A program made the position numbers and the translations under genes. The notes under the pieces are model-generated. The model saw nothing but the letters and a program-made list of their open reading frames with translations, ran no database searches and was not told the origin of the DNA. From NCBI GenBank assembly GCA_021404905.1, contig QWHN01000001.1:2162-66161 (forward strand): 64,000 bases of DNA, written 5' to 3'. Of this stretch, positions 19,974-48,816 are shown one piece after another (position 1 is the stretch's first letter; each line of letters starts with the position of its first letter). The stretch is from Candidatus Saccharibacteria bacterium CPR2. GTDB lineage: Bacteria; Patescibacteriota; Saccharimonadia; Saccharimonadales; QWHN01.

Positions 19974-20092
19974 ATGACAAATACACTATATCATCTGTTA
20001 CTATAAATCAATAAACGGTCGATTGGATGCTTTTTGGCTGAACATTAGCAAATGTGCTACACTTTCGAGTATAAAACATAAGAATTTTGCTT

Positions 20093-25445: not shown

Positions 25446-26117
25446 CTAAAAAATAAACTGCTGAAGGATTAAACCGGTTGCAACCGGCACAACTATATTA
25501 TCCCAACCCTTATTCATGGCACCTTCTGTAACTGTCAGAAAAGTTGCAATTACCAGTGCAGTTATTGCTGTAGATGAATTTATTAAACCAATTGCCTGGA
25601 AGAAACCAAACAACAAAATCATGGCAACAACAAAGAAAGTTGCGCTGCCAAATATTGTTTTTTCCGCACCGAATATTTTATAGTGAGCGCTTTTCACCCA
25701 GGTACCCGCAATGCTGGCAAGACCGTCCGCCAATGCAAGCATGAGAACCGCAACGGAGTAAACCAGCGGGTTTTTGAACATAAGCGCCGAAACTGCTACA
25801 CCAAGAGGAAATAAGAACTCGCCAAATGTTGATCTCTTTATTTTTCTATCTTTAACGGAGGAAAATACATCCAAAGATCTGGAGAGTACGACAATTACAA
25901 AAAACAATACATTTAAGACTACTATTTCACGCCAAGACATAAAATGGGGCAAAGTTGCTAAAATCAACCCGGCGCCAATGTGAATTGATTTTCTGGCATA
26001 CTCACCGTGCATAAAACCATTTCGACTTAAGATTTCGACTATGACAAGTATTGTTGCGATGGAGAGGAGTGTGACAATAACTGCTAGCATATGCGTTTTG
26101 ATGAGCAAAACTGCCAA
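25446..26117 (-). CDS. Polyprenol/dolichol-kinase or CDP-alcohol cytidylyltransferase-family membrane protein
   Basis: 7 TM helices. The RKSIHIGAGLI motif resembles the CTP_transf_1/DolK family. Confidence 0.55.
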   Translation of the reverse strand: MAVLLIKTHMLAVIVTLLSIATILVIVEILSRNGFMHGEYARKSIHIGAGLILATLPHFMSWREIVVLNVLFFVIVVLSRSLDVFSSVKDRKIKRSTFGEFLFPLGVAVSALMFKNPLVYSVAVLMLALADGLASIAGTWVKSAHYKIFGAEKTIFGSATFFVVAMILLFGFFQAIGLINSSTAITALVIATFLTVTEGAMNKGWDNIVVPVATGLILQQFIF

Positions 26118-31993: not shown

Positions 31994-32608
31994 ATGCTTA
32001 AACTGATGAAACTGCGAAGTAAAAATACCGGGTTTACTATCATTGAAATGCTTGTCGTCATAGTAGTCATCGGGATACTGGCTGCTATAGTTATGGTGCG
32101 CTACGTGCCAGACTATAAAGACAGAACTTACAAAAACAGAGGATTCGCGGAACTACAAACGTTTGCTAACGCTACCCGCTTATATGTTCAGAAATACAAT
32201 GAATATCCCGACGATGTAAACAGAGACGTGCCAGCAGAAATAAAAGAATTTATTGCTGGAGACGAGGAAAATGATGATTGGCCTAATGCCCCTTGGCCCG
32301 GCAGCGTGTTTGACTACGACAATTGGCAAAAAGATGACAATAACAACGGCCAAATAGAAGAAGATCTAGGGGAGCACATTGTTCAGCTTAGTATAAGATT
32401 TTGCCCTCTCGGAGGAGAGATTGAGACTTGCCAGTTTCCAAACGAAGTATGGGCAGAAAATTTCGACCAGTATAGCTCAGTCTATTACTGCCTTAAAGGA
32501 AAATGCAGGGCACATGTTAGCAAACCCATCGACCACCCCGGATACTGCGTTAATTGTGGCGTTCAACCTTCAGGCATGACGAATCAAACTTTCTTTACAA
32601 AACTGTAG
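31994..32608 (+). CDS. Type IV pilin-like protein (orphan, Cys-rich C-terminal domain)
   Basis: Class III signal peptide and processing site KNTG/FTIIEMLVVIVVIGILAAI with Glu5. Six Cys in the globular part. Confidence 0.75.
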   Translation: MLKLMKLRSKNTGFTIIEMLVVIVVIGILAAIVMVRYVPDYKDRTYKNRGFAELQTFANATRLYVQKYNEYPDDVNRDVPAEIKEFIAGDEENDDWPNAPWPGSVFDYDNWQKDDNNNGQIEEDLGEHIVQLSIRFCPLGGEIETCQFPNEVWAENFDQYSSVYYCLKGKCRAHVSKPIDHPGYCVNCGVQPSGMTNQTFFTKL

Positions 32609-32623
32609 TACAATACAGTTATT

Positions 32624-33205
32624 ATGCTTTTCTTGAGTAACAAATTTTTAAACGTAGCAGTTGTTAGCATAAATGCCGGTGCTAAAGTTGGCACTGTAAC
32701 TGAAATGATAATTAACCCCCACAAGCTGCGTGTTGATGCTTTTTATGTAATCTCAAGAGCCACAGGCAAATCGGTGTTGCACGTCGAAGATATACGCGGC
32801 TATGGGCCCCGAGGGTTACTTATAGATCACGAAGAGCAATTAATGGATCTTGCAGACTTAGTCAGGCTACAGGAAATCGCGAAAATACGTTATACGCCAA
32901 TTGATAAAAAAGTTGTTACAGAAGACAAACAAAAGCTTGGAAAAGTAACCGATTTTGTTATAGATTCTGAAACTTTTAAGATAATGAAAATTCATGTTAG
33001 ACAATCGGTTTTAAAAAATCTTCAAAGCTCAGCGCTTGTAATCGACAGAAGCCAGATAGTCGAGCTTACTAATGACAAAATAATCGTAAAAAGTACAGCC
33101 ATAAAAGAGCAGGAAGGAAGTGTTTTGAAAGCAAACATGCCACTTCCGTCAATCAAACCTCAGCTTAATCCTGATCCAGCGCCTTCAAAATTGTCTCGTA
33201 GTTAA
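32624..33205 (+). CDS. PRC-barrel domain protein (two repeats)
   Basis: Two similar ~80-aa segments (VVSINAGAKVGTVTEMIINPHKLRVDAFYV and VVTEDKQKLGKVTDFVIDSETFKIMKIHV), resembling YlmC/YmxH-type PRC barrels. Confidence 0.55.
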   Translation: MLFLSNKFLNVAVVSINAGAKVGTVTEMIINPHKLRVDAFYVISRATGKSVLHVEDIRGYGPRGLLIDHEEQLMDLADLVRLQEIAKIRYTPIDKKVVTEDKQKLGKVTDFVIDSETFKIMKIHVRQSVLKNLQSSALVIDRSQIVELTNDKIIVKSTAIKEQEGSVLKANMPLPSIKPQLNPDPAPSKLSRS

Positions 33206-33764
33206 AACCTTTTCTGGCAAGATATTGTTTTAGTTTTAATTCGTCTTGATAACGAGAGTTTTTTCTTTTTTTAATTATCAGTTCACGAATTGCACCCAAA
33301 TCAGACTGTAAGCAATTATTAATCGCTTCAATGATAATCTCATTTTCTATACTTTTGCGTTTTAGTTCGAATTCTATTTGCCTTTGGCTGGCATTTTTTA
33401 GTTCCCTGCGATTTTTGACCCACATTTTGGCAAACTCAAGATCGTTTAGATAATTTTGTTTGGTTAATTTTTTAATAATTTCTTCTGTTTGATCTTGATC
33501 CGCTCCAATTCGATCCAAATAATCTAAAATTTCTTTTTTTGAACGCAGGCGCAGTGATAAGTATTTCAAAACTCTATCGTAGTATTTGCCAATAGATGAT
33601 GCTTTTTTAAACCGCTCAAGTTCCGCGCCTGTAATATCCTGATTAATTTTGAGCTGCAAATCTATCACTTGAATTTGACTTAAAGAAAACTCGTATTTTT
33701 CATCAACAAAAATAGAGTAGCGGTCTTTCCGCTTTTGCTGTTTCTCAATAGCGGTAATTTTCAT
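33165..33764 (-). CDS. recX: RecA regulator RecX
   Basis: Three-repeat helical pattern. Located immediately downstream of recA. Confidence 0.8.
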   Translation of the reverse strand: MKITAIEKQQKRKDRYSIFVDEKYEFSLSQIQVIDLQLKINQDITGAELERFKKASSIGKYYDRVLKYLSLRLRSKKEILDYLDRIGADQDQTEEIIKKLTKQNYLNDLEFAKMWVKNRRELKNASQRQIEFELKRKSIENEIIIEAINNCLQSDLGAIRELIIKKRKNSRYQDELKLKQYLARKGFNYETILKALDQD

Positions 33765-33773
33765 GTAACCAAT

Positions 33774-34820
33774 TTAAACTTCTTTAGCAGCAGCTTCCCG
33801 GACTTTTTTATCTATTTCTTTAGTAACTTTAGCGTTTTCTGCCAAATATTTTTTGGCGGATTCACGACCCTGACCAATTTTTTGCCCATTATACTCAAAC
33901 CACGCGCCCGACTTGCCGACTATTTCGTATTTTACGCCGAGATCAAGTACATCGCCTTCATAGGAAATTCCTTGGTTGTACATAATGTCAAACTCCGCGT
34001 TTCTAAATGGCGGAGCGATTTTGTTTTTTACCACTTTTACTCGATGTCTACCCCCAATAATTTCTTCCCCGCTTTTGAGCTGACCGATTCGGCGAATGTC
34101 CATTCGAACCGAAGCGTAAAATTTCAAAGCATTTCCACCGGTGGTGGTTTCGGGATTCCCAAACATAACTCCGATTTTCATGCGAATTTGGTTAATAAAA
34201 ATAACCGTTGCTTTTGATTTATGGACTATTCCGGCAAGTTTACGTAACGCCTGGCTCATCAAACGAGCCTGAAGGCCAACGTGAGCATCACCCATATCAC
34301 CTTCGATCTCTGCTTGCGGCACCAAAGCCGCAACCGAGTCAACCACGACCAGATCAACTGCATTTGAGCGAACCAGAGTTTCAGTTATTTCAAGTGCTTG
34401 CTCTCCGTTATCCGGCTGAGAAATTAGCAATTCCTCAATGTTAACTCCGAGCCTTTTAGCATATTGAGGATCAAGCGCATGTTCGGCATCCACAAACGCC
34501 GCGGTACCGCCATTTTTTTGAATCGAAGCGATAGCGTGCAATGTAAGCGTAGTTTTTCCGCTCGACTCCGGCCCATAGATTTCAATGATTCTGCCCTTTG
34601 GCAAACCTCCACCAAGTGCAATATCAAGCGACAAACTGCCGATTGAAAAGGTTTCGACATCTATTTTATGAGCGTCTCCCAAGCGCATAATTGACCCGCT
34701 GCCAAACTGTTTTTCAATTTGCTCAACCGCCAAGCCCAATGCCCTTGATTTGCCATTATCTGGTTTTTCTTTTAGTTCAGTTTTTTTTACTGACACAACT
34801 CCTCCTTTACTCCAACCCAT
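33774..34820 (-). CDS. recA: Recombinase RecA
   Basis: [10 protein letters not shown] Walker A, and the [14 protein letters not shown] signature. Confidence 0.97.
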
Positions 34821-34894: not shown

Positions 34895-36643
34895 ATGATG
34901 ATTCCCGATTCCATGGTCCAGCAAATGTTGCTGGAGGCTGGCAAAATCAAAGAAGATCAAGCTAAAGAACTGCTGGAACAGGTCAAACAAGCAAAAAGGC
35001 CGCTCCAGGAAGTTGTAGTTAAGAATAACATTATTTCCGAAAAGGAACTTACTCAACTTTACTCTAAAGAAATTGAAGTTCCCTTTATAGAAATCGACAC
35101 AAAGGAAATTGATAAAGAGACTTTAAAGCTCGTTCCCGAAAGAGTTGCCAGAAAATATAACGTCGCCCTCATAGGTGTCAAGAAAGACGGATCCAATATG
35201 CTTGCCATGGAGGATCCTGACGATGTTCAGGCGCTCGATTTCTTAAAGAAATTGCTCGGCAAAAAGCTGGAAGTCTACATCGCGCCAAAGCAGGATATTT
35301 TGGCTGCTTTAGACCAATACCGAGGCAACATCAGCAGCGAGATAACCAAAGTCATTACAGAAGACGATGAAGAAGTTGATGAAGAAGTTGATGAATCGGA
35401 TTTGGCTGAGGACTCCCCTATTGCTCAAACAGTGAATTTGCTAATTGAGTATGCTGTTAAATCTGAAGCTTCCGACATACACATAGAGCCAAGAGATAAA
35501 TTCGTACAAGTACGTTATAGGATTGATGGAGTTCTAAAAGAAGCCAATAAACTTCCAAAGAAAATACTTGCCTCACTAGTTTCGCGCATCAAAATTTTGT
35601 CAAATTTAAAAATCGATGAACGCCGTGTACCCCAAGATGGTAGATTTAAAATTAACTTAAATGGCAGAATTTTTGCTTTCCGTGTTTCAACTTTACCGGT
35701 TGTCGATGGCGAAAAAGTAGTGATGAGAGTGCTTGATGAATCAAGCGATGCCCTGTCTCTAGAAAAACTGGGTTTTTGGGGCAAGTCTCTAGATGTTATC
35801 AATAACGCCATAGTTCAGCCTCATGGCATGATCTTAGTCACCGGACCAACCGGTTCGGGCAAGTCTACTACTCTACATAGCGTTCTAAACATACTTAATA
35901 AGCCTAATATTAATATTTCAACTATAGAAGATCCCGTTGAATATAAATTAGAGGGAACCAATCAAACCCAAGTAAACCCAAAAGCCGGAATGACCTTCGC
36001 CAACGGACTTAGAGCACTCCTGAGACAAGACCCGAATGTAATAATGGTCGGAGAAATTCGAGACAAAGAAACCGCTGGACTGGCAGTTCAGGCAGCTTTA
36101 ACCGGCCACTTGGTGTTTTCAACTCTGCATACAAACAATGCCGCTACTTGCCTGCCGCGTTTACTGGACATGGGCATCGAGCCTTTTCTGATTGCTTCTA
36201 CCGTCCGTGCGGTAGTTGGCCAGAGATTGGTGCGTAAGATCAATCAAGAAGGTTGCGAACAATACCAGCTAACAGAAAATGAAAAAAATCAAATAGAAAA
36301 TATATTTAACATTAAAACCAAACAGGACTGGGATAGAGTATATACCTTGGCGAACCAATACCGCGAGGCTATGGGAGAGAAAAAAAGCGATACCTTTACA
36401 CTTTGGCGCCCTAAGCAGGGTGATAGCTCAAAAGCTCCCGGATATAAAGGGCGGATGGGGATTTATGAAGTATTGGGCATCTCACCTGCAATTCAACAGC
36501 TAATTGTCAGCAATGCCACAAGCAGCCAAATTCAAGATCAGGCTGTTAAAGAAGGTATGAACGTTATGCAGCTAGACGGCCTGATAAAAGCTATGGTTGG
36601 GCTAACTTCTATAGAAGAGATTCTAAGAGTCACGAGAGAATAA
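34895..36643 (+). CDS. pilB: Type IV pilus assembly ATPase PilB (GspE family)
   Basis: Walker [10 protein letters not shown], Asp box, Walker [10 protein letters not shown] and His box [12 protein letters not shown]. Confidence 0.93.
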
Positions 36644-36645
36644 TC

Positions 36646-37875
36646 ATGCCCAAATTTACTTATAATGCTGTTAATAAAAAAGGTGAAAACGTAAACGGTA
36701 CTATTGAGGCATCAACAAAAGAAGCCGTGGCGGATACTTTGACGAAGCAGGGATTAAAACCATTACTTATAAAATTACAGAAAACCGGATTTGATCCGAA
36801 TAATATAAACATTAATCTCAGCTTTTTGGACCGCGTTAGGACCAAAGATCTAGTAATTTTTACGCGACAACTGTCGACTATGGTCAACGCTGGCGTCCCA
36901 TTGGTGAGGTCTTTGGCTACCCTTCAAAATCAAACGCAGAGTAAAAAATTGAAGACTGTTTTAGCAGCTGTTACTAAAGACGTTGAAGCGGGCATTCAAC
37001 TGGCAGATGCTCTCGAAAAACACCCTTCAGTATTTTCAGAGGTTTACGTAAATATGGTTAGAGCTGGTGAGGCCGGGGGAATACTTGACGATATCCTTAA
37101 AAAGCTGGCTTTCCAACAGGAAAAAGACGCAAGTATTAAGAAAAAACTGAAGGGAGCGATGACTTACCCTGCGGTACTAATGTTTATTACTATAATCGCG
37201 TTTTTTGCCTTAACGATATTTGTGGTGCCAAAAATTGGCGCCATGGTGAAATCGTTAGCCGGCGAAGACGCCACGTTACCTATTCAAACCACAATCATGC
37301 TCGGAATCAGTGACTTCTTAAGAGGCTATTGGTTCATATGGATACCCGCTATAGTGGGAACGATTATCGCCCTTAGAGCCTATATAAAAACTAAGAGCGG
37401 TAAGCGTAATTTTCATTTGTTTTTACTTAAGGCACCGATAGTTAAAACTATTGTTACTAAAGTAGCTGTAGCACGATTTTCACGCACATTTGCTTCATTA
37501 ATGTCCGCGGGCGTGACAGTTCTTGAAGCAATTCATACTACCAGTGGAGCAATAGGAAATATAATTATCGCAGAAGAACTTAACAAAGCGGCGGAGGCTG
37601 TAAAAAACGGCAAGCAGCTTTCCGAGCCACTATCAGAGAGTAAGATTTTTCCTGCCATAGTCAGCCAGATGCTGGCAGTAGGCGAAGAAACTGGCCAGAC
37701 TGATACCATTCTTATTAAAGTAGCTGATTTTTACGAAGAGGAAGTTGATACATTAGTTGATAGTATGAGCTCCATCATAGAACCGATCATGATAGTTATT
37801 ATGGGAGCTATGGTCGGGTTGATTGCGGCCAGTGTCATAGGGCCAATTAGTAGCCTCACTAAACAGATTAAATAA
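36646..37875 (+). CDS. pilC: Type IV pilus platform protein PilC (GspF family)
   Basis: Two T2SSF repeats (FTRQLSTMVNAGVPL and FSRTFASLMSAGVTVLEA) and 3 TM segments. Confidence 0.93.
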   Translation: MPKFTYNAVNKKGENVNGTIEASTKEAVADTLTKQGLKPLLIKLQKTGFDPNNININLSFLDRVRTKDLVIFTRQLSTMVNAGVPLVRSLATLQNQTQSKKLKTVLAAVTKDVEAGIQLADALEKHPSVFSEVYVNMVRAGEAGGILDDILKKLAFQQEKDASIKKKLKGAMTYPAVLMFITIIAFFALTIFVVPKIGAMVKSLAGEDATLPIQTTIMLGISDFLRGYWFIWIPAIVGTIIALRAYIKTKSGKRNFHLFLLKAPIVKTIVTKVAVARFSRTFASLMSAGVTVLEAIHTTSGAIGNIIIAEELNKAAEAVKNGKQLSEPLSESKIFPAIVSQMLAVGEETGQTDTILIKVADFYEEEVDTLVDSMSSIIEPIMIVIMGAMVGLIAASVIGPISSLTKQIK

Positions 37876-37898
37876 TTTATATCGCTACTTATTAAGTG

Positions 37899-37926
37899 TT
37901 GACACAGATATGCTAATGCTTATAAT
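37899..37926 (+). promoter_or_regulatory. Sigma-70-type promoter upstream of the major pilin
   Basis: TTGACA (37899-37904), a 16-nt spacer, then TATAAT (37921-37926). A strong AGGAGG Shine-Dalgarno lies 8-9 nt before the pilA ATG. Confidence 0.45.
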
Positions 37927-38005
37927 AGTTCTCAGATGCTTGACTCTGCATTAGATGCAGGGTAAGTAGAATAAAAAGAACATAATTAAAGGAGGGTGGG
38001 CTAAA

Positions 38006-38422
38006 ATGTTCACGAAACTAAAAAAATCTCAAGAGGGTTTCACAATTGTTGAACTCTTAATCGTAATTGTCGTTATAGGTATCTTGGCGGCACTAGTATT
38101 AACAACATTCCAGGGAGTTCAGGCACGGGCTAGAGACACTGAACGCAAAACTGACGTAAACGCTTTGCACACGCATTTGGAAGTTTACTACAACGATAAT
38201 GGAAGGTATCCTACATTAGCTCAGGTTACCACAGCAAACCTTCCAGGTCTTGATCCTGAAGCATTGAATGATCCAAATGGGAACGCGCTAAGCGCAAACG
38301 CTCCTTTCGCATATGTACCTGCGCCAACAAACTGTGACAACACCAACAACGACTGTACCAGCTATACTCTTACAGCTACCATGGAAGAGGAAGCAAACTA
38401 TGTCAAGGGCAGCTTGAATTAA
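38006..38422 (+). CDS. pilA: Major type IV pilin (PilA-like)
   Basis: Prepilin leader MFTKLKKSQEG/FTIVELLIVIVVIGILAAL. 138 aa with a C-terminal Cys pair. Has its own promoter, SD and terminator. Confidence 0.85.
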   Translation: MFTKLKKSQEGFTIVELLIVIVVIGILAALVLTTFQGVQARARDTERKTDVNALHTHLEVYYNDNGRYPTLAQVTTANLPGLDPEALNDPNGNALSANAPFAYVPAPTNCDNTNNDCTSYTLTATMEEEANYVKGSLN

Positions 38423-38444
38423 AACAGCAAGTTGAATTTAGAAC

Positions 38445-38476
38445 AAGGCGCTTTTCATGTGAGCGCCTTTTTCTTT
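38445..38476 (+). terminator. Rho-independent terminator after pilA
   Basis: AAGGCGCT-tttcatgtg-AGCGCCTT followed by TTTTCTTT. Confidence 0.6.
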
Positions 38477-38545
38477 GCCTATTTTTATCATAAGCATTTA
38501 CGCCGCCTTAATTATTAAGTAGGATATAAGATAGATGAGTATGCC

Positions 38546-38968
38546 ATGAGGTATAAAGAGTTTGGATTTACCATACCCGAGTTATTAGTGACATTATTTG
38601 TTCTGGTCACTGCTTTTATTAGTTTTACTACGTTATTCGTAGCCATTGATAGTGTTAGTACCAAAAATAAATTACTGCTTGACGCGAACGGGGCGGCTTA
38701 TGCCAAAATTCAGGAATACGAGAATATGGAATTTACAAATATTCCCACTGGCAGTACATGTGATGACGGTTCAAAAACAAACGAAGTCGAAGATTTTTCC
38801 GGTAGCCTTCCTTCCTCTTTATTCGCGCCTAAAACAGGAAAGGTATATGTAGTATCTGTAACTCAAAGCCTGAAATTAATTTGCGTAGAAGTGTCCTATA
38901 GAGATAACAATGGCAATAAACTCATAGAATATGCCGACTTTATTCATGAAAGCGGGTACGGTAGATGA
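38546..38968 (+). CDS. Minor (pseudo)pilin
   Basis: Leader MRYKEFG/FTIPELLVTLFVLV with Glu5. Confidence 0.7.
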   Translation: MRYKEFGFTIPELLVTLFVLVTAFISFTTLFVAIDSVSTKNKLLLDANGAAYAKIQEYENMEFTNIPTGSTCDDGSKTNEVEDFSGSLPSSLFAPKTGKVYVVSVTQSLKLICVEVSYRDNNGNKLIEYADFIHESGYGR

Positions 38969-39699
38969 AAATATTCAACCAAAAAGGCTTTACACTCGTA
39001 GAAATACTGGTTGTCGCGCCGATTTTCATATTAGTAGCAATGGGTATGCTTGGATATTTAATAGAAAGATATGGTCAAACTCTTATTAAGTCAGCCGAGG
39101 TTAATTTAATGGTTGACGCGCAAACAATTACTTTAAATCTAGAAGACGAACTTGCGTTCGCCACAAACTTTGGCGATACGCTTGGGGCAAATTTAAGCGA
39201 TCCAAACGAACCAAATGGAGGCTGGACCTTCAACACAACTCCAAATACGTTAATAATCTACGAACAGTCAAGAACGGGAGACATACGCGACCCTAATAGC
39301 GATGTAATTTTTGCTCAGCCATGCGATGGAACGTCTATAGCACTAAATAATCTTATCTATTTTTCTGAAGATAACAATAATAACGATTATAAAAGCCTTT
39401 ATAAAAGAACTGTCGTGCCAGATAGCGCGGATATCTGTGCCACAAATTTCCGGCAATTAACTTGCCCAAGCGAAACCGTGGGTACAAATGGTTGCAATCA
39501 AGCAGACGCGTTGGTAACAGATAAATTAATTGACTTTCAGGTTACTTATTATGACGAAGATAATGCCGTAATCGACATGGGCAACGGAGGGAACCCGCTT
39601 GACGCGGAAAAAGTAGCAATAGCAATTACTTTGGGAGATATTGCCTATGGAGAAGAAGTCCAGGCGTCGTCATCATTAACAGTAAAGAAGTTTAATTAA
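38965..39699 (+). CDS. Minor (pseudo)pilin, PilW-like
   Basis: Leader MKIFNQKG/FTLVEILVVAPIFIL. Start overlaps the upstream stop (ATGA). Confidence 0.7.
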   Translation: MKIFNQKGFTLVEILVVAPIFILVAMGMLGYLIERYGQTLIKSAEVNLMVDAQTITLNLEDELAFATNFGDTLGANLSDPNEPNGGWTFNTTPNTLIIYEQSRTGDIRDPNSDVIFAQPCDGTSIALNNLIYFSEDNNNNDYKSLYKRTVVPDSADICATNFRQLTCPSETVGTNGCNQADALVTDKLIDFQVTYYDEDNAVIDMGNGGNPLDAEKVAIAITLGDIAYGEEVQASSSLTVKKFN

Positions 39700-39700
39700 T

Positions 39701-41584
39701 ATGAAATTGATTAGTCGACACAGCAATAAAGGATTCCTGATACCGTCAATCATGATAATTATTGCTCTTATTGGCATTGTGGCAATCTCTACTCTTAGTA
39801 TGGTCAACACAAGCCAATATGCCGCTTCAAAACAAAGTTACCAGCAAATGGCTCATATAGCCTCAAAGGCGGCGCTTGATTTCGCAAAAGAACAGTTTGA
39901 AGATAATCAAAATTTCGGGGGCATTAACGCAGCTAATCCCTATATAGATCCTGATGACGGTCAAAGTTATACAGAAATTGAGATTATTAAAAATGATAAA
40001 TATCGCGTAACTTTTCAAATTGATGTGCTCTCCACTGCTATATGCACAAGCCAGGGCCAAAATTACCTTTGCAAGGAAATGCGAGGCACCGGATATGTAT
40101 ACTTGCCTGAAACTTCAGTAACAGCCCATTATGTGCGCGATATCAAAAATACTATCATTCGAGAATCAGTTGAGCTGGGAAATCCAGCAGATTATGGCCC
40201 AATTTTGTGGCTTGATGCAAGCGTAGCTGGCTCCATGATAACAGGATCACTAGCTGGCAACGAGCAATACATTACCGCCCAATACGGTTCTTCAAATGGC
40301 AGTATTGTTGAGGAAAGAGGCTCTGATGCAGGAAGTAACCCGGGAAGACTCATTTGGACTAATGACGATTTGGAAATGTCGTGGGACGGAGTCACAAACG
40401 GCCATCAGATTACAGGACTAAGGTTCACGGGCCTTAACATCCCACAAGGCAAGACAATCGAACAAGCCTATATACAATTTCAAACTGATGAAACAAAAGC
40501 CGCTGGTAATGTAAGCTTGCGTGTAAAGGGAATTTTAAGTCCAAACGCACCGGCATGGAATGGTAATGGCGCTGTTTCTAGTGCTGTAAAGACTGCAGCA
40601 AATGTAAATTGGAACCCGGTGGATTGGAATGTAGTAGGTGCTAATGGCCAAAACGAACGAACTGCTGATTTGGCACCAATTGTGCAAGAAATTATCAACC
40701 AAGGATCCTGGAACAGTGGCAATGCGATCGCGTTTTCAGTAGAATACGTTTCTGGCTCCGGAATCAGAACCGCAGAAAAAGGAATGGATGATATTGGTAA
40801 CCCGATACTTTATATCAAATGGCAGGATGCGGGTATTAGTGTTGCGGGGAACAACGACCCCATAAGCCAATGGCAGGATATATCAGGCAACGGTAATCAT
40901 GCCAATCTAGCATACGGGGCTGCGCCTGTAAAACAAGACGGTTTATTTAACAATGGCTCGATGCCATCCGTTGTATTTAGTGGAAATGGCGTACTTGGAT
41001 CTAATCTGACTTCTACTTTTATAAATCAGGAATCCACAGCATTTATTGTTATGAGAGCTAGAAGCAGTAGCAGTAGTGAGGCACGATATGTAACCATGAT
41101 GAGAAGTAATTTTGCATCCGACGACCCCGTTGGTTGGAGCGGAAGCCCGTCGCTGCAGCATTTTAGAAGACAAGGGTCAACATCCACAATAAAAAATAAA
41201 GCCTTTTTACTTGGCTTCCTGGAAGTAAGTTCCAGCTTTACCCCGGCCATAGATAACCAGCAACGAGTATACTCAAGTCGAATGGGATCGGGATTATGCA
41301 TCTTTGGTTGGTGTTGGGGTAATAAAGTTTACATGCGCGGGAATGGAGCGATGGGAACAGAAAATTCCTGGAATCTTGCGACTCACATGGCTGATCAAAT
41401 CTATGTTGGCGGCAGAAGAAACGGCACGGGTGGCTCAGCACAAGGAGCAGATTATGCTGATGCGGACATTGCAGAAGTGCTGGTCTATGCTGGCGCCTTA
41501 AATTGCTCTCAGGTTCAGGAAGTTGAAACATATCTGTCAGCTAAATGGGGAATTTCATTCACTCCAAGTTCCTGCCCCAATTAA
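39701..41584 (+). CDS. Large pilin-like protein with C-terminal LamG/concanavalin-A-like lectin domain (candidate pilus tip adhesin)
   Basis: N-terminus SNKG/FLIPSIMIIIALIGIVAIS is pilin-like but lacks Glu5, as in PilX/GspK-type pilins. The C-terminal ~230 aa resemble LamG_3 (WQDISGNGNHA...FIVMRARSS...IYVGGRRNG...IAEVLVYAGALN...ETYLSAKWGI). Confidence 0.7.
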   Translation: MKLISRHSNKGFLIPSIMIIIALIGIVAISTLSMVNTSQYAASKQSYQQMAHIASKAALDFAKEQFEDNQNFGGINAANPYIDPDDGQSYTEIEIIKNDKYRVTFQIDVLSTAICTSQGQNYLCKEMRGTGYVYLPETSVTAHYVRDIKNTIIRESVELGNPADYGPILWLDASVAGSMITGSLAGNEQYITAQYGSSNGSIVEERGSDAGSNPGRLIWTNDDLEMSWDGVTNGHQITGLRFTGLNIPQGKTIEQAYIQFQTDETKAAGNVSLRVKGILSPNAPAWNGNGAVSSAVKTAANVNWNPVDWNVVGANGQNERTADLAPIVQEIINQGSWNSGNAIAFSVEYVSGSGIRTAEKGMDDIGNPILYIKWQDAGISVAGNNDPISQWQDISGNGNHANLAYGAAPVKQDGLFNNGSMPSVVFSGNGVLGSNLTSTFINQESTAFIVMRARSSSSSEARYVTMMRSNFASDDPVGWSGSPSLQHFRRQGSTSTIKNKAFLLGFLEVSSSFTPAIDNQQRVYSSRMGSGLCIFGWCWGNKVYMRGNGAMGTENSWNLATHMADQIYVGGRRNGTGGSAQGADYADADIAEVLVYAGALNCSQVQEVETYLSAKWGISFTPSSCPN

Positions 41585-41653
41585 ATTAAGCTATATGTCA
41601 AAATGTTAAACTGTTATACTTATGAATAGCGCTAATGTTTTAAAAATAAATTT

Positions 41654-42718
41654 ATGAATAACACTCCGCTATTTTTTGTTGATAAGCCGGTTTTTGGAAT
41701 CGACATATCCCAGACATCCGTAAAAGTAATGCAAATAGATACTGCGTCAAAAATGCATACCGTAAGAGGATACGGCCATATAAATTTTGACGATAGAGCT
41801 ATTAAACAAGGTGTTGTGGTTGACCCTGAAACAATTGCTAAAGCAGTATACACGTTATTTTCCAAGCATTTAGTAGGAGCAATTGACACAAAAAGAGTTA
41901 TTAGTTCAGTTCCATCAGCCAGCACGTTTAATCGCATTCTCTCCCTGCCGCATATGGAAAAGAAAGATCTTGATGAGGCAGTTAGGTTGGAAGCTGAGCA
42001 ATATATACCTGTTCCCTTGGAAGATTTATATCTAGATTACGAAATTGTAAAAAAAGATGACAATAACATCAGTGTTTTAATGGTAGGGGCTCCAAAAAAA
42101 GTTATAGATTCTTTTATGGTGCTCTTGGACTTGCTTGGGCTGGAGGTCGTTGGATTACAACCAAGTATAGATGCTGTGACAAAAATCATCATGCATGCTG
42201 AAGGGACATCAGTTCCCACGCTCATTATTGATTTTGGTTCATATAATTCAAACATGGCAATATATGACAGTACGGTTAGTGTTGCGGGAAGTATATCAAG
42301 CGGCGGCGAGAATATTTCAGAACTAATCTCAAAATCTCTTAATGTAACATCCCGCCAAGCATATACCATCAAAACAAGATATGGTTTAGATCCAAGTAAA
42401 CGCCAAAAAGAAATTATTGGGGCCTTAAGCCCATACTTGAAAAAACTAATATCCGAGATTAAAAAAATAATTAGATTTTACGAAGAAAGATCCGTTAAGG
42501 GAGAAAAGGTTGGCCAGGTTATAACCGTAGGCGGAGGAGCAAATCTTCCTGGTTTAAGCACATATTTAACGGACCAGCTTAGGCTTCCGGCGCGCCGATG
42601 CGATCCTTGGCAAAATTTAAATTTTGGCACTATTCAACCTCCCCACCCGCTTGAGACCACACTTTATACGACAGCAGCGGGTTTAAGTTTGGCGGGTCCG
42701 CGAGGAATATTATCATGA
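41654..42718 (+). CDS. pilM: Type IV pilus assembly protein PilM (actin-like ATPase fold)
   Basis: FGIDISQTSVKVMQID...QYIPVPLEDLYLDYEI...GGGANLPGLSTYL. Confidence 0.9.
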   Translation: MNNTPLFFVDKPVFGIDISQTSVKVMQIDTASKMHTVRGYGHINFDDRAIKQGVVVDPETIAKAVYTLFSKHLVGAIDTKRVISSVPSASTFNRILSLPHMEKKDLDEAVRLEAEQYIPVPLEDLYLDYEIVKKDDNNISVLMVGAPKKVIDSFMVLLDLLGLEVVGLQPSIDAVTKIIMHAEGTSVPTLIIDFGSYNSNMAIYDSTVSVAGSISSGGENISELISKSLNVTSRQAYTIKTRYGLDPSKRQKEIIGALSPYLKKLISEIKKIIRFYEERSVKGEKVGQVITVGGGANLPGLSTYLTDQLRLPARRCDPWQNLNFGTIQPPHPLETTLYTTAAGLSLAGPRGILS

Positions 42719-43290
42719 TAAATCTAATGCCCCCAAATCTTAAAAAAGATATTCTTTACGCCAGAAGGAATGTCACGCTCGCGCAGTATTGTGTTTTAGT
42801 TGCCATTACGGCGGTTGCACTGACAGGTGTAATGGTCTACGGAATAATGTTAATTAATTCAGATCAAAATGCGCTTGAAGAATCAATATCATCAAAAAAA
42901 TCAACTCTCGAGCTGTTGAAAAAAGATGAAACGGAGGCAAATAATTTGTCTAAAACCATAGACACCATCAACGCTTTGCTTAACAGAGAAGTATCATTTT
43001 CTAAGCTTCTGCAAGATATTGGTGCCCTCATGCCAGAGGGCACGAAACTCACAGGGCTTTCACTCGCATCATCTAAAGACCAGCCTCTCACGATTACAGC
43101 AGCCCTAAACGAACAGAAAAAGGCCGCTATTTTACAACAGAATTTATTAAAATCCGGACTTTTCTCAGCTGTTGATATCCAGGCGGTTAATACCTCCGCA
43201 ACAGCTGAGGATGGCACTCCGACCGAATTCAGCGCTCAGCTTTCGGCCAAATTTGCAGACGAATCTAGCAAGACGGAGAAAAAACAATGA
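42715..43290 (+). CDS. pilN: PilN-like fimbrial assembly protein
   Basis: INLMPPN start, single TM, coiled coil. ATGA overlap with pilM. Confidence 0.75.
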   Translation: MINLMPPNLKKDILYARRNVTLAQYCVLVAITAVALTGVMVYGIMLINSDQNALEESISSKKSTLELLKKDETEANNLSKTIDTINALLNREVSFSKLLQDIGALMPEGTKLTGLSLASSKDQPLTITAALNEQKKAAILQQNLLKSGLFSAVDIQAVNTSATAEDGTPTEFSAQLSAKFADESSKTEKKQ

Positions 43291-43865
43291 CCCCGAAAAA
43301 AGCATATATTCTCATGCTAATTGTTTTGCTGGCAACAATAGCTGGCAGCTTTGGGGTTCTTTATATATCAGATAAGCTGCTAGCAGGCAGAGCCAGTGAC
43401 ATATCGCGGCTCAAAGCTGAAGATCAAGCATTGGATACAAACATCTTAACGGCTAACAAAAATCAACAGACTTTGCAGGAGCTCGCTTATGTCAACGAAC
43501 TGGCAAAAGAGGTATTGCCGCCCGAAAAAATACAATCAAACTTACTTGGAGAAGTCCTTGCCAACGCGGAAGATGCCGGAATATTTTTAAGCAGTATTGC
43601 TTTTTCTGGAAGCATCGATGAAAAAAATCCGCAGTTATCCCAAACTGTCGAGCTTAAAGACGTGCCAGGCGTAAGAGCATTGCAATTTACGGTTGATATG
43701 AGTTCAATTTCATACTCCCAGCTCTTGGATTTTTTGGAAAACCTAGAAAAAAACCGCAGGAAAATGCAAGTTGAAAGCCTAACGATTACGCCAGAATTAG
43801 AGGACGATCAACAATCAGATAAAGTAAGTGCTAATATAACTGTAAACGTTTACATAAAACCATGA
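43287..43865 (+). CDS. pilO: PilO-like pilus assembly protein
   Basis: N-terminal TM plus coiled coil. Position after pilN, with an ATGA overlap. Confidence 0.65.
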   Translation: MTPKKAYILMLIVLLATIAGSFGVLYISDKLLAGRASDISRLKAEDQALDTNILTANKNQQTLQELAYVNELAKEVLPPEKIQSNLLGEVLANAEDAGIFLSSIAFSGSIDEKNPQLSQTVELKDVPGVRALQFTVDMSSISYSQLLDFLENLEKNRRKMQVESLTITPELEDDQQSDKVSANITVNVYIKP

Positions 43866-44161
43866 ATAAACTAAAAGAGAAATTATTCAATAATCTACAG
43901 ATAGTTATAAGAAATTTGAGCCGATGGCGGCTTGTGATATTGGCGCTTAGTGTTATTGGCCTATTCGCATTTTCTGTATTTAGGATCGAGCAATCATCAT
44001 CCGCTAAAGCTGATGAAAATGTGTATAACGAAAAAATAGGCGAGGTTAAAAAAGTAAAGTTTAATTTAGACGCAGTGGAACGAATAAAACAATTGCGTGA
44101 TCGAGAGATAAATATTCAGCCTGAGTACGAAGAATCTAGGAACAATCCATTCGCCGACTAA
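43862..44161 (+). CDS. Small single-TM protein, last gene of the pilus operon
   Basis: 99 aa, one TM. ATGA overlap with the pilO-like gene. No family recognised. Confidence 0.45.
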   Translation: MNKLKEKLFNNLQIVIRNLSRWRLVILALSVIGLFAFSVFRIEQSSSAKADENVYNEKIGEVKKVKFNLDAVERIKQLRDREINIQPEYEESRNNPFAD

Positions 44162-44764: not shown

Positions 44765-45805
44765 TTATAACAGATTTGATTGCGGAGAACTTATTTTTAA
44801 CTGCTTGTTTGGATCGTGCTTTAGGTGTTTATATGCCTTATGAGTAACTTTTCTTCCTCTCGGAGTACGCTCTAAAAACCCAATTTGCATAAGATACGGC
44901 TCATAAAAATCTTCAATTGTTGACCTCTCCTCCGCCATTAATGCTGCCAATGTCTCAACGCCAACCGGCCCGCCTTTATGATTAACTATTATTGCCTCAA
45001 TTAATTGTCTATCGGCAGGATCAAGACCCAAGTTATCAATTTCGAGCAATTCAAGTGCTTTTTCGGAGATATTCATGTCTATAATACCGTCGCCATTTAC
45101 ATCAGCATAATCTCTTACTCTTTTGAGTAAGCGATTAGCAACTCTAGGCGTAAGACGTGCTCGTTTGGCAATATTTTCTGTTGCACCAGAATCTATGCTT
45201 ATTCCTAGAATCTTAGCGGAACGATTAATAATTTTTTCGATTTCACTTAAATTATAAAACTCCAGTCGATGCATTATGCCAAATCTATCCCGTAACGGCG
45301 CCGCTAGGGCGCCAGTTCTGGTAGTAGCGCCGATTATTGTAAATTTCGGTAAATCAAGCCGCAGGCTTTTTGCGCTTGGCCCCTTGCCAAGTATGATGTC
45401 GAGTTTATAGTCTTCCATCGCACTGTAAAGCACTTCTTCAACACTTCTGCTTAATCGGTGGATTTCATCAATAAAAAGGATGTCCCCGTCTTGTAAATTT
45501 GTTAGCAGACTCGCTAAATCCGCGGCACGACCCACTGCCGGACCACTTGTTATTCTAATATTTGCTCCCATTTCATGCGCGATTACACTGGCCATCGTAG
45601 TCTTGCCCAATCCTGGCGGGCCGTAAAGCAATACGTGATCTACTGGCTCTTTTCTTTTTTTTGCTGCCTCTATAGCAAGTTTTATATTTTTCTTTAATCT
45701 TTCCTGGCCAATATAGTTTGTAAAATCTTTAGGTCGAAGGCTGTTTTCCAGTCTTTGCTCCTCTTGGTCCTCGTTTGTAGTATTTACAATTCTTTCTACC
45801 GCCAT
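44765..45805 (-). CDS. ruvB: Holliday junction helicase RuvB
   Basis: [21 protein letters not shown], and the arginine-finger region. Confidence 0.97.
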
Positions 45806-46383
45806 TATTTACCGCCTTTTAAAGCTACCCGTACGCGTTCCTCGGTTGATAAAGATTTGTCCACGCTTTGCAAAGCAAGATGCGCGTCAGACTCGCTAAA
45901 CCCGAGCGCGATCAATGCTTGCATTGCTTCGTCATTTTGATCAATTCCTCCTCTAAAGACAATCTCCTCGGCCCCTTCAGTTGAAAACGCGCCAATTTTA
46001 TCGCGAAGCTCAACAATCATTTGCTCAGCCGCTCGTTTTCCTACGCCCTTGGCGGTTTGCAATATCTTTACTTCACCGCCAGCAATAGCAGCTTTGACTC
46101 TACCGGCGCCAATATCCATTACGGCTAAAGCCACTTTTGGGCCAATATTCTTCACACTAAGCAGTTGTTCAAACAGATATTTGTTCTCTTTTTTAGCAAA
46201 GCCATATAAATCATGAGTGTTTTCCCTGAGATAATCATATATATAAAGAGCGATTTCTTGGCCTAGTGTCGCCAGCTCAATTTCCGACGCGCTCACGAAA
46301 ACCTCATACCCGACTCCGCCAACATCGACAACGAGCGAGTTATTAAATTTTTCCAACACCTCTCCCCTAATCATCGCTATCAT
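45805..46383 (-). CDS. ruvA: Holliday junction DNA-binding protein RuvA
   Basis: [12 protein letters not shown]...[12 protein letters not shown] aligns with canonical RuvA N-termini. Start set at the ATG at 46383; the stop overlaps the ruvB ATG. Confidence 0.9.
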
Positions 46384-46432
46384 ACCAAGAAGTATATCGT
46401 ATAGAGTATGGAGTATGAAGCGCACCCCTGGC

Positions 46433-46466
46433 TAGAAACTGGAAATTAGAAACTGGAAATTAGAAC
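46433..46466. repeat. 14-bp tandem repeat TAGAAACTGGAAAT x2.4 between ruvC and ruvA
   Basis: Read directly from the sequence. Confidence 0.7.
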
Positions 46467-46474
46467 ATTTTTAA

Positions 46475-46969
46475 CTAATTCCTATTTTCTATTTTCCGAT
46501 TGCTATTCATGGTGTGGCAAATCGCAGCAGCCAAGGCATCGGCGCAATCATCTGGTTTTGGCACATCTTTAAGGCCCAATATAACTCTTACCATTTCTTG
46601 GATTTGCTTTTTGTCAGCATGCCCATATCCCGTCAACGCTTGCTTTATTTGCAAAGGAGTGTATTCATATAACTTTAGTTTGTGCTGTTTACCGCAAAGC
46701 AATACTACGCCCCTTGCTTGAGAGACGCTCATGGCAGTAGTAACATTTTGAGAGAAAAACAACTTCTCTACTACCATAATTTGTGGTTTTTGAAATTTAA
46801 TAATTTCGTGCAGTTCGTCGTATATTGTAGCAAGTCTGTCGCTATCACTTTTATCGGAATCCGTGCGAATCACTCCGCCATCTATAAGTTTTAATTTTCC
46901 GGAATTAATTGCATCAATAACGCCAAATCCAAGAATGCCAACTCCTGGATCAATGCCTAAAATTCGCAT
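46475..46969 (-). CDS. ruvC: Crossover junction endodeoxyribonuclease RuvC
   Basis: MRILGIDPG...VEKLFF...DCADALAAAICH. Confidence 0.93.
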   Translation of the reverse strand: MRILGIDPGVGILGFGVIDAINSGKLKLIDGGVIRTDSDKSDSDRLATIYDELHEIIKFQKPQIMVVEKLFFSQNVTTAMSVSQARGVVLLCGKQHKLKLYEYTPLQIKQALTGYGHADKKQIQEMVRVILGLKDVPKPDDCADALAAAICHTMNSNRKIENRN

Positions 46970-48303: not shown

Positions 48304-48816
48304 TCACCCTCTGCCACGTTTTTTGGAATGCTTGTCTAACTTTCGTTGACGTTCGTGTTCATGCATTAAAATATCAAATACCGCGATTGTGATGGTAATA
48401 GCGATTATCAAGACCTCAAAATATCTCAGTTGGCCATAAACATAAGATTGGGATTTGATATTTTCCGTAATATTAAGAGGTAAGTTTTGCAAAACAAGCA
48501 ATCCTGAAAGCAAGGCAAAGGCTATTGAAGGCACTATATGTTGCAAAAATCTTGAAGACTGATACCCTCTAAATCTTATTAAAATCACCAGAGCAGGCAG
48601 CAGAATAATTGCTATTGTCACTATAGTTGTAAGTGGAACGCTGGAGTCATCCAAACCCCTTGCTCTTAGAAAGTTAACGACTTCGTCCGTTAATAGATCG
48701 CTCAATACATAACCGGCTGTGAGTCCCAATATAGCCAAGGATATGTTCGTTCTCAGTAATAGACAAAGCAGAGCAATGCCGCCTAGTGAAATTGCCATTA
48801 TGACATCAGCATTCAT
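48304..48816 (-). CDS. Polytopic membrane protein, function unknown
   Basis: 170 aa, 5 TM helices, basic C-terminal tail. Confidence 0.5.
   Translation of the reverse strand: MNADVIMAISLGGIALLCLLLRTNISLAILGLTAGYVLSDLLTDEVVNFLRARGLDDSSVPLTTIVTIAIILLPALVILIRFRGYQSSRFLQHIVPSIAFALLSGLLVLQNLPLNITENIKSQSYVYGQLRYFEVLIIAITITIAVFDILMHEHERQRKLDKHSKKRGRG

Follow-up and report, generated by a model that had tools for sequence, protein, structure and literature searches.

The window analysed here is a 64-kb stretch of DNA from Candidatus Saccharibacteria bacterium CPR2; the pilus genes and signals described below lie on its forward strand. Positions 34895-44161 are occupied by a genuine, intact, secretin-less T4aP-type operon of an environmental Saccharibacterium. 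This agrees with the preliminary description of the locus, whose gene order and ORF coordinates, from pilB to the gene of a 99-aa TM protein, were reproduced exactly. The operon begins with the assembly ATPase PilB (582 aa, MshEN N-domain, 34895-36643; T2SSE 3.1e-130, MshEN 2.7e-17), which matches NCBIfam TIGR02538 at 1.8e-168, under the equivalog cut-off, and continues with the platform protein PilC (409 aa, 36646-37875; T2SSF 2e-61, in two stretches). Beyond the pilin genes follow actin-like PilM (354 aa, 41654-42718; PilM_2 1e-33, TIGR01175 155 bits against a cut-off of 133), PilN (191 aa, 42715-43290; PilN 1.4e-5, above cut-off), a PilO/GspM-like protein (192 aa, 43287-43865; sub-threshold matches to T2SSM_b, 0.003, and GspM, 5.5e-4) and a 99-aa single-TM protein (43862-44161), which keeps its position in relatives and matches no family in Pfam or NCBIfam. 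The ATGA overlaps described earlier are present (n = 4), together with gaps of 1 and 2 nt. Searches found no PilB/PilT paralogue, Peptidase_A24 or secretin within the 64-kb window. The operon does lack pilQ, pilT and pilD, as had been claimed, and the absence of all three extends to the whole 64 kb; the proposed check for pilT and pilD, run over the window, recovered neither. A prepilin peptidase is obligatory for a type IV pilus. Because this enzyme is missing from both the operon and the window, the operon cannot be called complete, as it had been.

An additional 204-aa type IV pilin (31994-32608; TG|FTIIE, Glu5; N_methyl 1.3e-7) is encoded upstream of PRC-recX-recA, just outside the coordinates of the preliminary description. 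Its homologues are found directly 5' of pilB in two related loci (L020 and L022). Class III signal peptides (G-1, F+1, E+5) are carried by four pilins, namely this one, PilA and the 140-aa and 244-aa minor pilins. PilA, the candidate major pilin (138 aa, 38006-38422), has the leader MFTKLKKSQEG|FTIVE with Glu5 and two C-terminal Cys; among the best 120 of 7,450 matches its homologues are 55-88% identical. The promoter, Shine-Dalgarno sequence and terminator attributed to pilA were all recovered. A perfect sigma-70-type promoter, TTGACA-16-TATAAT (37899-37926), occurs once in 64 kb versus 0.04 matches expected by chance. The predicted pilA leader has a stem-loop at its 5' end (37937-37968; -17.5 kcal/mol, z -3.6), and the Shine-Dalgarno sequence AAAGGAGGG lies 3' of it, at about 37990. 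The intrinsic terminator (38445-38479) consists of a 9-bp stem with 5 GC pairs (38445-38469) followed by a T-run.

Three minor-pilin genes form a cassette between pilA and pilM. They encode proteins of 140 aa (38546-38968; G|FTIPE, Glu5), 244 aa (38965-39699; G|FTLVE, Glu5) and 627 aa (39701-41584; G|FLIPS, Ser5, Pro4), and these cleavage motifs agree with the earlier assignment of two Glu5 minor pilins and a large Glu5-less one. The 627-aa ORF is intact rather than disrupted: 56 homologues align with it end to end, and one that is 82% identical is likewise 627 aa long. The NCBI annotation begins this gene 17 codons further 3', giving 610 aa. The structure prediction that the preliminary description suggested for the 627-aa protein was carried out. 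In the full-length AF2 model (pLDDT 85.3) two beta-sandwich domains come after the helix and head of the pilin part, which makes the protein a modular pilin with a C-terminal ConA-like jelly roll. The pilin module (aa 1-160, 39701-40180) comprises the leader MKLISRHSNKG|FLIPS, an alpha1 helix at residues 13-68 and a beta-sheet head. The GF motif and Ser5/Pro4 are conserved in homologues, and P15 is nearly invariant. With a pilin N-terminus lacking Glu5, encoded by the final gene of a minor-pilin operon, the protein resembles the GspK/PilX type; its GspK score in NCBIfam is sub-threshold (15.7 bits, E 0.008; cut-off 130), and a relative with the same N-module (L003) matches PilX_N at 1.4e-4. 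No significant domain was found in the 627-aa protein in Pfam or NCBIfam.

The C-terminal domain (aa 381-627, 40841-41584) had been described as a LamG domain, with the proviso that profile searches should support it. Those in Pfam and NCBIfam did not: none of Laminin_G_1, _2 and _3 matched the 627-aa protein in Pfam at E<=0.1, and an HMM search with the C-domain did not recover verified LamG_3 domains. Among 57 homologues, Laminin_G_3 was touched weakly by two (best 1.1e-4) and Sialidase_N, also weakly, by four. A faint signal came from hhalign, in which the C-domain profile aligned with Pfam-verified LamG_3 at a probability of 56.7% (P 1.1e-4) over the last 60 columns only; control alignments with the other two domains of the large pilin gave P 0.45-0.7. 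What stands is the fold. The domain model (pLDDT 89.6) is a curved beta-sandwich, a jelly roll of ConA-like (LamG-like) type; it has a helix at its C-terminus, and Cys602 and Cys625 form a conserved pair. Structural matches to this fold reach a probability of 1.00. This predicted structure and the weak hhalign signal may rescue the LamG call, at superfamily level only. Clostridial neurotoxins and phage tail fibres/tailspikes contain the ConA-like receptor-binding modules that resemble aa 381-627 most closely in structure. Neurotoxin receptor-binding domains, NTNH and calreticulin are matched at E 3e-7 to 2e-5 (TMq 0.5-0.6), the matched part of the receptor-binding domains presumably being the ConA-like Hc N-subdomain. 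Phage ConA-like tail/fibre proteins are matched at E down to 2.7e-12, with RMSD of 3.5-4.5 A for several of them. The likeness to both groups is at the level of fold alone (10-22% identity) and supports a binding module, nothing beyond. The ConA-like fold is also present in non-lectin proteins. A C-terminal jelly roll of this kind on a modular Glu5-less pilin makes a sensible adhesin candidate, as had been proposed.

The middle domain (aa 165-375, core 205-375; 40193-40825) is a beta-sandwich with a sub-threshold likeness to DNRLRE/CBM96. The preliminary description had recognised nothing in this region; we found it to belong to a very widespread domain family of ~170 aa with ~8,900 cluster representatives, which no Pfam model covers. 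Members are often found in tandem, within large multidomain proteins that seem to be secreted or located at the surface, and are frequently fused to hydrolases and phosphoesterases. The domain scores 18.8 bits with NF033679 (DNRLRE; cut-off 34) over model positions 20-154 of 164; of 20 family members, six give sub-threshold DNRLRE matches and one matches Pfam CBM96 (PF24517) at 1.1e-4. The domain itself matched neither NF033679 nor PF24517 over the cut-off. The CBM96/DNRLRE family, to which alginate-binding TM6-N4 belongs (PMC9971899), resembles the middle domain in being a ~165-aa beta-sandwich that is present, frequently in several copies, in multidomain secreted proteins and in S-layer or lyase proteins; the conserved motifs (DDAEE...SSDLEL...GxRF...IQF...W.P..W...IVQEIVNR.GW) differ. 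A search with the whole large-pilin model also matched a chondroitin-sulfate-binding CBM (8wab) and CBM40s, the aligned region not being reported.

The pilus locus is flanked by recX-recA and ruvB-ruvA, and the majority of the 80 related genomes compared show this arrangement too. The recurring order in GTDB Saccharibacteria is PRC-recX-recA-pilB-pilC-pilA-[0-6 kb slot]-pilMNO-TM protein-bPH-ruvB-ruvA. In an oral-type variant (pilBCMNO-PRC-recX-recA-pilin-bPH-ruvB) PilB has 592 aa, and the layout agrees with the published T4P locus two of Nanosynbacter lyticus TM7x, which comprises pilB2 (592 aa), pilC2, pilM2N2O2, recAX and pilJ (Grossman et al. 2025, PMC12206443). A tblastn search of the 80 related loci gave, among those listed, no second PilB/PilT-like match within +/-10 kb. 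The CPR2 genome may hold this pilus machinery alone. TM7x T4P-2 is a thin, pilT-less, host-binding pilus with no part in motility or competence: deletion of pilB2 or pilA2 abolishes thin pili, and deletion of pilA2, pilX2, pilB2 or pilC2 cuts host binding by half (PMC12206443). Both systems belong to the same phylum and link a pilT-less pilB-pilC-pilMNO set to recA-recX; both have a small major pilin and a large Glu5-less minor pilin with an extra C-terminal module; and host tethering is the proposed role of both. They differ in the location of the pilins, which in the window are encoded within the machinery operon itself, in the interval from pilC to pilM, and in TM7x at a separate locus (locus three), and in the head of the large pilin, which is DNRLRE-like plus ConA-like here and a seven-bladed RCC1 beta-propeller in TM7x PilX2. 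Judging by synteny, the published description and the oral-type PilB length, the operon is probably the counterpart of TM7x T4P-2. Since the TM7x pilin after recA is PilJ, not PilA2 (PMC12206443), the counterpart of the window's PilA may be either PilA2 or PilJ. The concept of a T4P-2 with a large Glu5-less PilX2 as adhesin candidate is already known, having been shown genetically in TM7x.

A lectin-bearing pilin is also known from Streptococcus sanguinis, whose ConA-like lectin pilin PilC is solved (PDB 7oa8) and belongs to the PilABC tip complex (PMC9934059). Foldseek matched the whole large-pilin model to this structure, whereas sequence homology between the two proteins is not detectable. 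Both systems are secretin-less T4P of monoderm type in which a ConA-like lectin module is grafted on a pilin module, and both have a three-gene minor-pilin operon with one Glu5-less, Pro4-containing member. In S. sanguinis, however, Glu5 is present in the lectin pilin PilC and missing from the small PilA, while in the window the lectin-bearing subunit itself lacks Glu5; moreover, PilC combines Ig-like and lectin modules instead of DNRLRE-like and ConA-like ones. The large pilin further resembles the 'K' subunit (GspK/PilX-PilK) of the HIJK tip complex of T2SS and T4aP: it is the largest, Glu5-less, encoded by the final minor-pilin gene and a predicted cap. The GspK alpha-domain is unrelated to its head domains, and the H subunit has no obvious equivalent in the cassette, a part that the upstream 204-aa pilin might serve.

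Overall, we suggest, with a probability of roughly 0.7, that the operon encodes a Saccharibacterial T4P-2-type pilus whose minor-pilin cassette forms a tip complex with a two-module glycan-binding head that tethers the episymbiont to its host. Gene content, synteny, domain architecture and fold are as reported above; from them we infer the tip location, the glycan binding and the host specificity. PilB, PilC, PilM, PilN and PilO would assemble a non-retractile PilA filament across a monoderm-like envelope, which would therefore need no secretin. The prepilin peptidase would have to come from another part of the genome, and a retraction ATPase, if any, would likewise be encoded outside this locus. 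The co-translated 140-, 244- and 627-aa minor pilins most likely assemble into the priming complex, which then comes to sit at the tip of the pilus; the Glu5-less 627-aa subunit would cap it, as GspK/PilX do. On its pilin module this subunit would bear in series the DNRLRE/CBM96-like domain (aa ~205-375) and the ConA/LamG-like jelly roll (aa 381-627), both of which may attach to surface glycans of the host bacterium and thereby tether the episymbiont. The cassette would be exchangeable between genomes, both in where it sits and in the head it carries, and such exchange would adjust the choice of host surface.

DNA binding, which the preliminary description had offered as another option, would make this a competence pilus that takes up DNA for ComEC import and RecA recombination, with the large pilin binding DNA or lysed-cell debris. 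The linkage of the pilus genes to recX-recA and ruvB-ruvA is tight and widespread, and extends to ruvC in the window and three relatives. ComEC is encoded in the window (6284-7738) beside a lamin-tail-domain protein and is adjacent in one relative (L084), and the failure to find pilT in the 64-kb window points the same way. PilA matches ComGC and ComP_DUS weakly, but far below the cut-offs, and the head domains look like carbohydrate-binding modules, not known DNA receptors. In TM7x, transformation proceeds normally, at wild-type rates, in the pilin mutants assayed, pilA2 and pilX2 of T4P-2 among them, while T4P-2 mutants lose host binding (PMC12206443); we therefore disfavour DNA uptake and consider it improbable.

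We regard it as similarly unlikely that the 627-aa protein is a non-pilus surface lectin on an uncleaved pilin-like helix, or a short pseudopilus stalk, acting at close range after contact. Its lack of Glu5, the later NCBI gene start and the persistence of thin filaments after pilX2 deletion in TM7x (PMC12206443) would fit such a role. However, the G|F motif, Pro4, the long alpha1 helix and the pilin beta-head are conserved over 57 homologues, its translation is coupled to that of two canonical Glu5 minor pilins, and in the majority of genomes surveyed the cassette remains linked to the pilus genes; absence of Glu5 is, moreover, a hallmark of tip-capping GspK/PilX-type subunits. The head could also be an enzyme, a GH16-like glucanase or a lyase-associated module, that cuts host cell-wall polymers. 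The ConA-like superfamily takes in GH16 glucanases, two of which (1gbg and 4xdq) are among the weaker Foldseek matches, and the fusions of the middle-domain family to hydrolases and phosphoesterases lean in this direction. Yet the structures most similar to the C-terminal domain are those of binding domains without catalytic activity, no catalytic family was matched in Pfam or NCBIfam, and reading aa 381-627 by eye revealed no ExDxxE-type catalytic motif, so that an enzymatic head appears very improbable.

A host-tethering pilus of the kind we favour bears on how ultrasmall episymbionts select and hold their bacterial hosts, which has so far been tested on oral strains alone. Environmental Saccharibacteria are predicted to retain the same second pilus, fitted with a different lectin-like tip subunit. 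Residues 165-627 or 381-627 are concrete candidates for expression, with which host receptors could be sought and host range could be predicted from genome data, and the middle domain draws attention to a very common surface-protein domain that Pfam does not model. The 140/244/627-type trio is conserved and, in the majority of genomes surveyed, tied to this locus, with a 139-149-aa pilin partner kept beside large-pilin homologues in the relatives' loci. The cassette differs between genomes in its position and head domains, and distinct head types sit on a common N-terminal pilin module. A bolder and rather doubtful extension, which we offer tentatively, is that the slot between pilC/pilA and pilM is an exchange hot spot for tip cassettes with a constant Glu5-less base and swappable heads (at least three unrelated types plus the TM7x beta-propeller). 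The head pair of this genome might then read host cell-wall glycans and set host range, its middle module representing a large carbohydrate-binding-module family that is distant kin of CBM96. Among the homologues compared, the C-domain is the part that diverges most from the window protein (34% identity versus 53% for the middle domain).

The operon runs from pilB (34895-36643; T2SSE, E = 3e-130, plus an MshEN N-domain) and pilC (36646-37875; T2SSF, E = 2e-61) through pilA (38006-38422), minor pilins of 140 aa (38546-38968) and 244 aa (38965-39699) and the 627-aa large pilin (39701-41584) to pilM (41654-42718; TIGR01175), pilN (42715-43290; Pfam PilN), a PilO/GspM-like gene (43287-43865) and a single-TM protein of 99 aa (43862-44161). 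PilA and both minor pilins carry a G↓F...E5 signature. The PilM and PilN matches lie above cut-off; the PilO/GspM-like gene has sub-threshold matches only. We found the ORF positions of the preliminary description to be exact to the base, and the ATGA overlaps that it reported are present at four junctions, with two further junctions having gaps of 1-2 nt. The promoter, Shine-Dalgarno (AAAGGAGGG) and terminator that it had claimed for pilA were all located as well. The promoter (TTGACA-N16-TATAAT, 37899-37926) is the sole perfect match in the 64-kb window (0.04 expected), and the 9-bp, GC-rich terminator lies at 38445-38469. The predicted pilA 5' leader begins with a stable hairpin (37937-37968; -17.5 kcal/mol, z = -3.6), which may be an mRNA-stabilising stem-loop for a highly expressed pilin.

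A window-wide search (64 kb) returned no PilB/PilT paralogue, Peptidase_A24 or secretin. The 491-aa ORF at 20087-21562 (+) has no Pfam match at E ≤ 1e-5 and is not a PilD; nor is either of the multi-TM ORFs at 25446-26117 (-; 223 aa) and 48304-48816 (-; 170 aa), both Pfam-negative at E ≤ 0.01. The 99-aa TM protein, translationally coupled to pilO and without a family match, may be a lineage-specific additional component of the alignment complex. Proteins of 95-111 aa occupy the same position in the related loci L083, L084 and L085, and tblastn matches fall there in L001, L004 and L063.

We compared the operon with 80 GTDB Saccharibacteria loci (PilB 56-67% identical; the CPR2 genome itself is not among the matches). 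Their order, conserved to a striking degree, is PRC-barrel, recX, recA, pilB, pilC, pilA, a variable slot, pilM, pilN, pilO, small-TM, bPH, ruvB, ruvA. A second order, which we call oral-type, is pilB(592 aa)-pilC-pilM-pilN-pilO, PRC, recX, recA, small pilin, bPH, ruvB. It exactly matches T4P locus two of TM7x (Nanosynbacter lyticus), which holds pilB2 (592 aa), pilC2, pilM2N2O2, recAX and a single pilin, pilJ, and lacks pilT (Grossman et al., ISME J 2025, PMC12206443). Because of this synteny, we assign the window operon to the T4P-2 type, a placement that depends on gene order. The T4P-2 machinery of TM7x makes a thin, non-essential pilus, and host binding falls by half when pilA2, pilX2, pilB2 or pilC2 is deleted; twitching is ascribed to T4P-1 (PMC12206443). 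This phenotype was shown by others in TM7x. The TM7x pilT and pilD reside in locus one (PMC12206443), and we would expect them at another CPR2 locus likewise. No second PilB/PilT-like match occurs within ±10 kb among the loci listed. A PilA homologue search on the question of TM7x PilA2 versus PilJ yielded metagenome proteins only.

The neighbourhood could instead point to a competence pilus, as the linkage to recA, ruv and ComEC is genuine and widespread. However, those TM7x pilin mutants that were tested, pilA2 and pilX2 among them, transform at wild-type rates (PMC12206443), and this full competence argues against such a role. The linkage between pilus and recombination genes is unusually stable, which is puzzling given the competence of these mutants. 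In most related Saccharibacteria, as in the window, recX-recA (33165-34820) flanks the pilus genes on one side and ruvB-ruvA (44765-46969) on the other; ruvC follows ruvA in the window, L083, L084 and L085. The window also encodes ComEC (6284-7738, -; Competence, 1.8e-42), adjoining a 513-aa protein with two lamin-tail domains (4670-6211, -), and in L084 the same pilus-rec-ruv block is flanked by ComEC and an LTD protein.

The slot between pilC and pilM is polymorphic. The 140/244/627-type trio occupies it in L083 (large pilin 82% identical), L084, L015, L020 and L022. In L085 the trio sits between bPH and ruvB; in L001 it is found beyond ruvA, inverted and accompanied by another small partner, and in L081 at an unrelated site. 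Across L001-L080 the slot is empty, holds pilA alone, or combines pilA with a minor-pilin cassette, of which there are at least three unrelated kinds. In the other cassettes, the large Glu5-less pilins have the N-terminal pilin module in common (HMM E 1e-8 to 1e-19) and bear unrelated heads: a 465-506-aa pilin occurs in 12 loci and a 521-599-aa pilin in 7, the latter partnered in at least 5 loci by a Glu5 pilin of 512-550 aa. Both of the partner pilins scanned (2/2) contain CarboxypepD_reg-like domains. No recombination-site repeats were found flanking the cassette. In L026, one cassette type is present in two tandem copies.

The large pilin begins MKLISRHSNKG↓FLIPS, with Pro at +4 and Ser at +5. 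It is 100% identical to the 'hypothetical' CPR2 protein DYH10_00295 (610 aa), whose NCBI start lies 17 codons 3' of the ATG used here (39701-39751 omitted); the prepilin leader and G↓F site are therefore lost from the record. The longer ORF is supported by conservation of GF..P in 57 homologues. Apart from the window protein, 56 full-length homologues (37-82% identity, 566-627 aa) were collected, all unnamed or 'hypothetical' and none (0/56) with a precomputed Pfam domain. Pfam and NCBIfam gave nothing usable on the 627-aa protein, and the full family, run as a profile against PDB sequences, gave only a chance match (E = 0.23). The AlphaFold2 model from the family alignment (pLDDT 85.3) has a pilin module, with helix alpha1 at aa 13-68 and a four-stranded head to aa ~155, then a beta-sandwich at aa ~165-375 and a second at aa 381-627 with a terminal helix. 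The two sandwiches show no detectable relatedness (hhalign P = 0.34). Divergence from the window protein is greatest in the C-domain (34% identity; middle domain, 53%). Across the 57 homologues Cys625 never varies and Cys602 hardly does (window ~41573 and ~41504); a Cys602/Cys625 disulfide probably staples the C-terminal helix, which fits an extracellular protein.

The LamG domain that the preliminary description placed in the C-domain holds at the level of fold and not in profile searches, in which Pfam and NCBIfam return nothing at E ≤ 0.1. Only 2/57 homologues match Laminin_G_3 (best 1.1e-4), and 4/57 match the ConA-like Sialidase N-domain. Structural matches to the isolated C-domain model (pLDDT 89.6) include the receptor-binding domains of clostridial neurotoxins as well as NTNH and calreticulin (E 3e-7 to 2e-5, TMq 0.5-0.6), the target regions not being given by the search. 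The neurotoxin matches presumably fall in the ConA-like Hc N-subdomain. The whole model matches phage ConA-like or LamG-like jelly-roll proteins (E down to 2.7e-12), several with RMSD 3.5-4.5 Å over ~250 columns, as well as neurexin LNS, CBM40 and the S. sanguinis lectin pilin PilC (7oa8). As modelled, the C-domain is a jelly roll of the ConA-like superfamily. Aligned by hhalign with Pfam-verified LamG_3 (P = 1.1e-4, over the last 60 columns only), it pairs ...IYVGGRR...ADIAEVLVYAGAL.CSQVQ with ...LYIGGR...IDDVRIYCRAL..DEI; the other two large-pilin domains, as controls, gave P 0.45-0.7. The C-domain is probably a divergent LamG_3-type domain and a putative lectin. LamG_3 homology by way of a BLAST alignment with the protein P0085 was rejected: the C-domain HMM misses the LamG_3 domains of P0078, P0083 and P0085.

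The middle region, earlier said to match nothing, belongs to a widespread domain family. In the window it spans 40298-40840 (aa 200-380; ~170 aa), with motifs DDAEE / SSDLEL / GxRF / IQF / W.P..W / IVQEIVNR.GW. With an HMM of aa ~205-375, matches at E 1e-30 to 1e-50 fall in varied large multidomain proteins, mostly with 2-3 copies in each; there the domain is combined with, among others, metallophosphoesterases, CehA/McbA-type metallohydrolase domains, PKD/Ig arrays, FG-GAP, beta-helix and T9SS sorting tails. Phmmer against 1.84 billion 50%-identity cluster representatives returned 8,909 proteins at E ≤ 1e-3, 4,776 at ≤ 1e-10 and 872 at ≤ 1e-30, often with 2-6 copies and at most six per protein. 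In none of the proteins examined is the domain covered by a Pfam or NCBIfam model. Among described families, DNRLRE (NF033679) comes closest: the window segment scores 18.8 bits (cut-off 34) but aligns with model positions 20-154 of 164; 6/20 family members show a weak DNRLRE match and 1/20 a Pfam CBM96 match. CBM96, to which DNRLRE is related, has an alginate-binding protein as its founding member (PMC9971899). We take distant kinship to the CBM96/DNRLRE superfamily as a lead rather than as membership. Assigning the 8wab and CBM40 matches by elimination with respect to the middle domain is weakened by E-value scaling. Matches to designed 'Pizza' propellers in the PDB profile search (E down to 1e-19) are artefactual, since seven ~10-bit stretches (individual E 3-7) of one 40-aa segment were summed over identical repeats. 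The 530-aa metagenome protein P0088, a pilin with N_methyl and a PilV/HpsB-like N-terminus, bears the middle domain at aa 278-478 behind an F5/8-type-C-like region; hence the module was grafted onto pilins more than once.

Building on the gene content, synteny and folds observed here, we suggest that PilB, PilC and PilMNO would polymerise PilA made from its own strong promoter, the pilA terminator reducing read-through to the minor pilins, and that assembly would be nucleated by the three minor pilins, whose translation is coupled. In line with the HIJK and S. sanguinis PilABC models, the 627-aa Glu5-less subunit would cap their complex and would therefore sit at the pilus tip; there, its pair of beta-sandwich modules would hold the episymbiont to its host by binding glycans on the host surface. 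Rival readings make the 627-aa protein a membrane-anchored surface lectin outside pili, or its head enzymatic. In the pilus-tip reading, the position of the large pilin, its ligand and its part in host range are inferred. Earlier publications already describe a second Saccharibacterial pilus that lacks pilT and has a large PilX without Glu5 as its candidate adhesin, as well as a ConA-like lectin grafted onto a monoderm minor pilin, S. sanguinis PilC; that paper also points to the minor-pilin complement as the chief difference among Saccharibacteria. New here are the pilin + DNRLRE-like + ConA-like architecture, in an uncharacterised family of ~57 members, the consolidated operon layout with its documented slot polymorphism, and the place of the middle module in a large domain family without a Pfam model.

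A fifth pilin, with Glu5 (204 aa; 31994-32608, +), lies outside the preliminary description, a short way upstream of PRC-recX-recA; the fourth, H-like minor pilin is otherwise missing, and this gene could supply it. Its homologues lie directly upstream of pilB in L020 and L022, and in most related genomes the PRC-barrel protein (32624-33205, +) keeps its synteny with the pilus locus.
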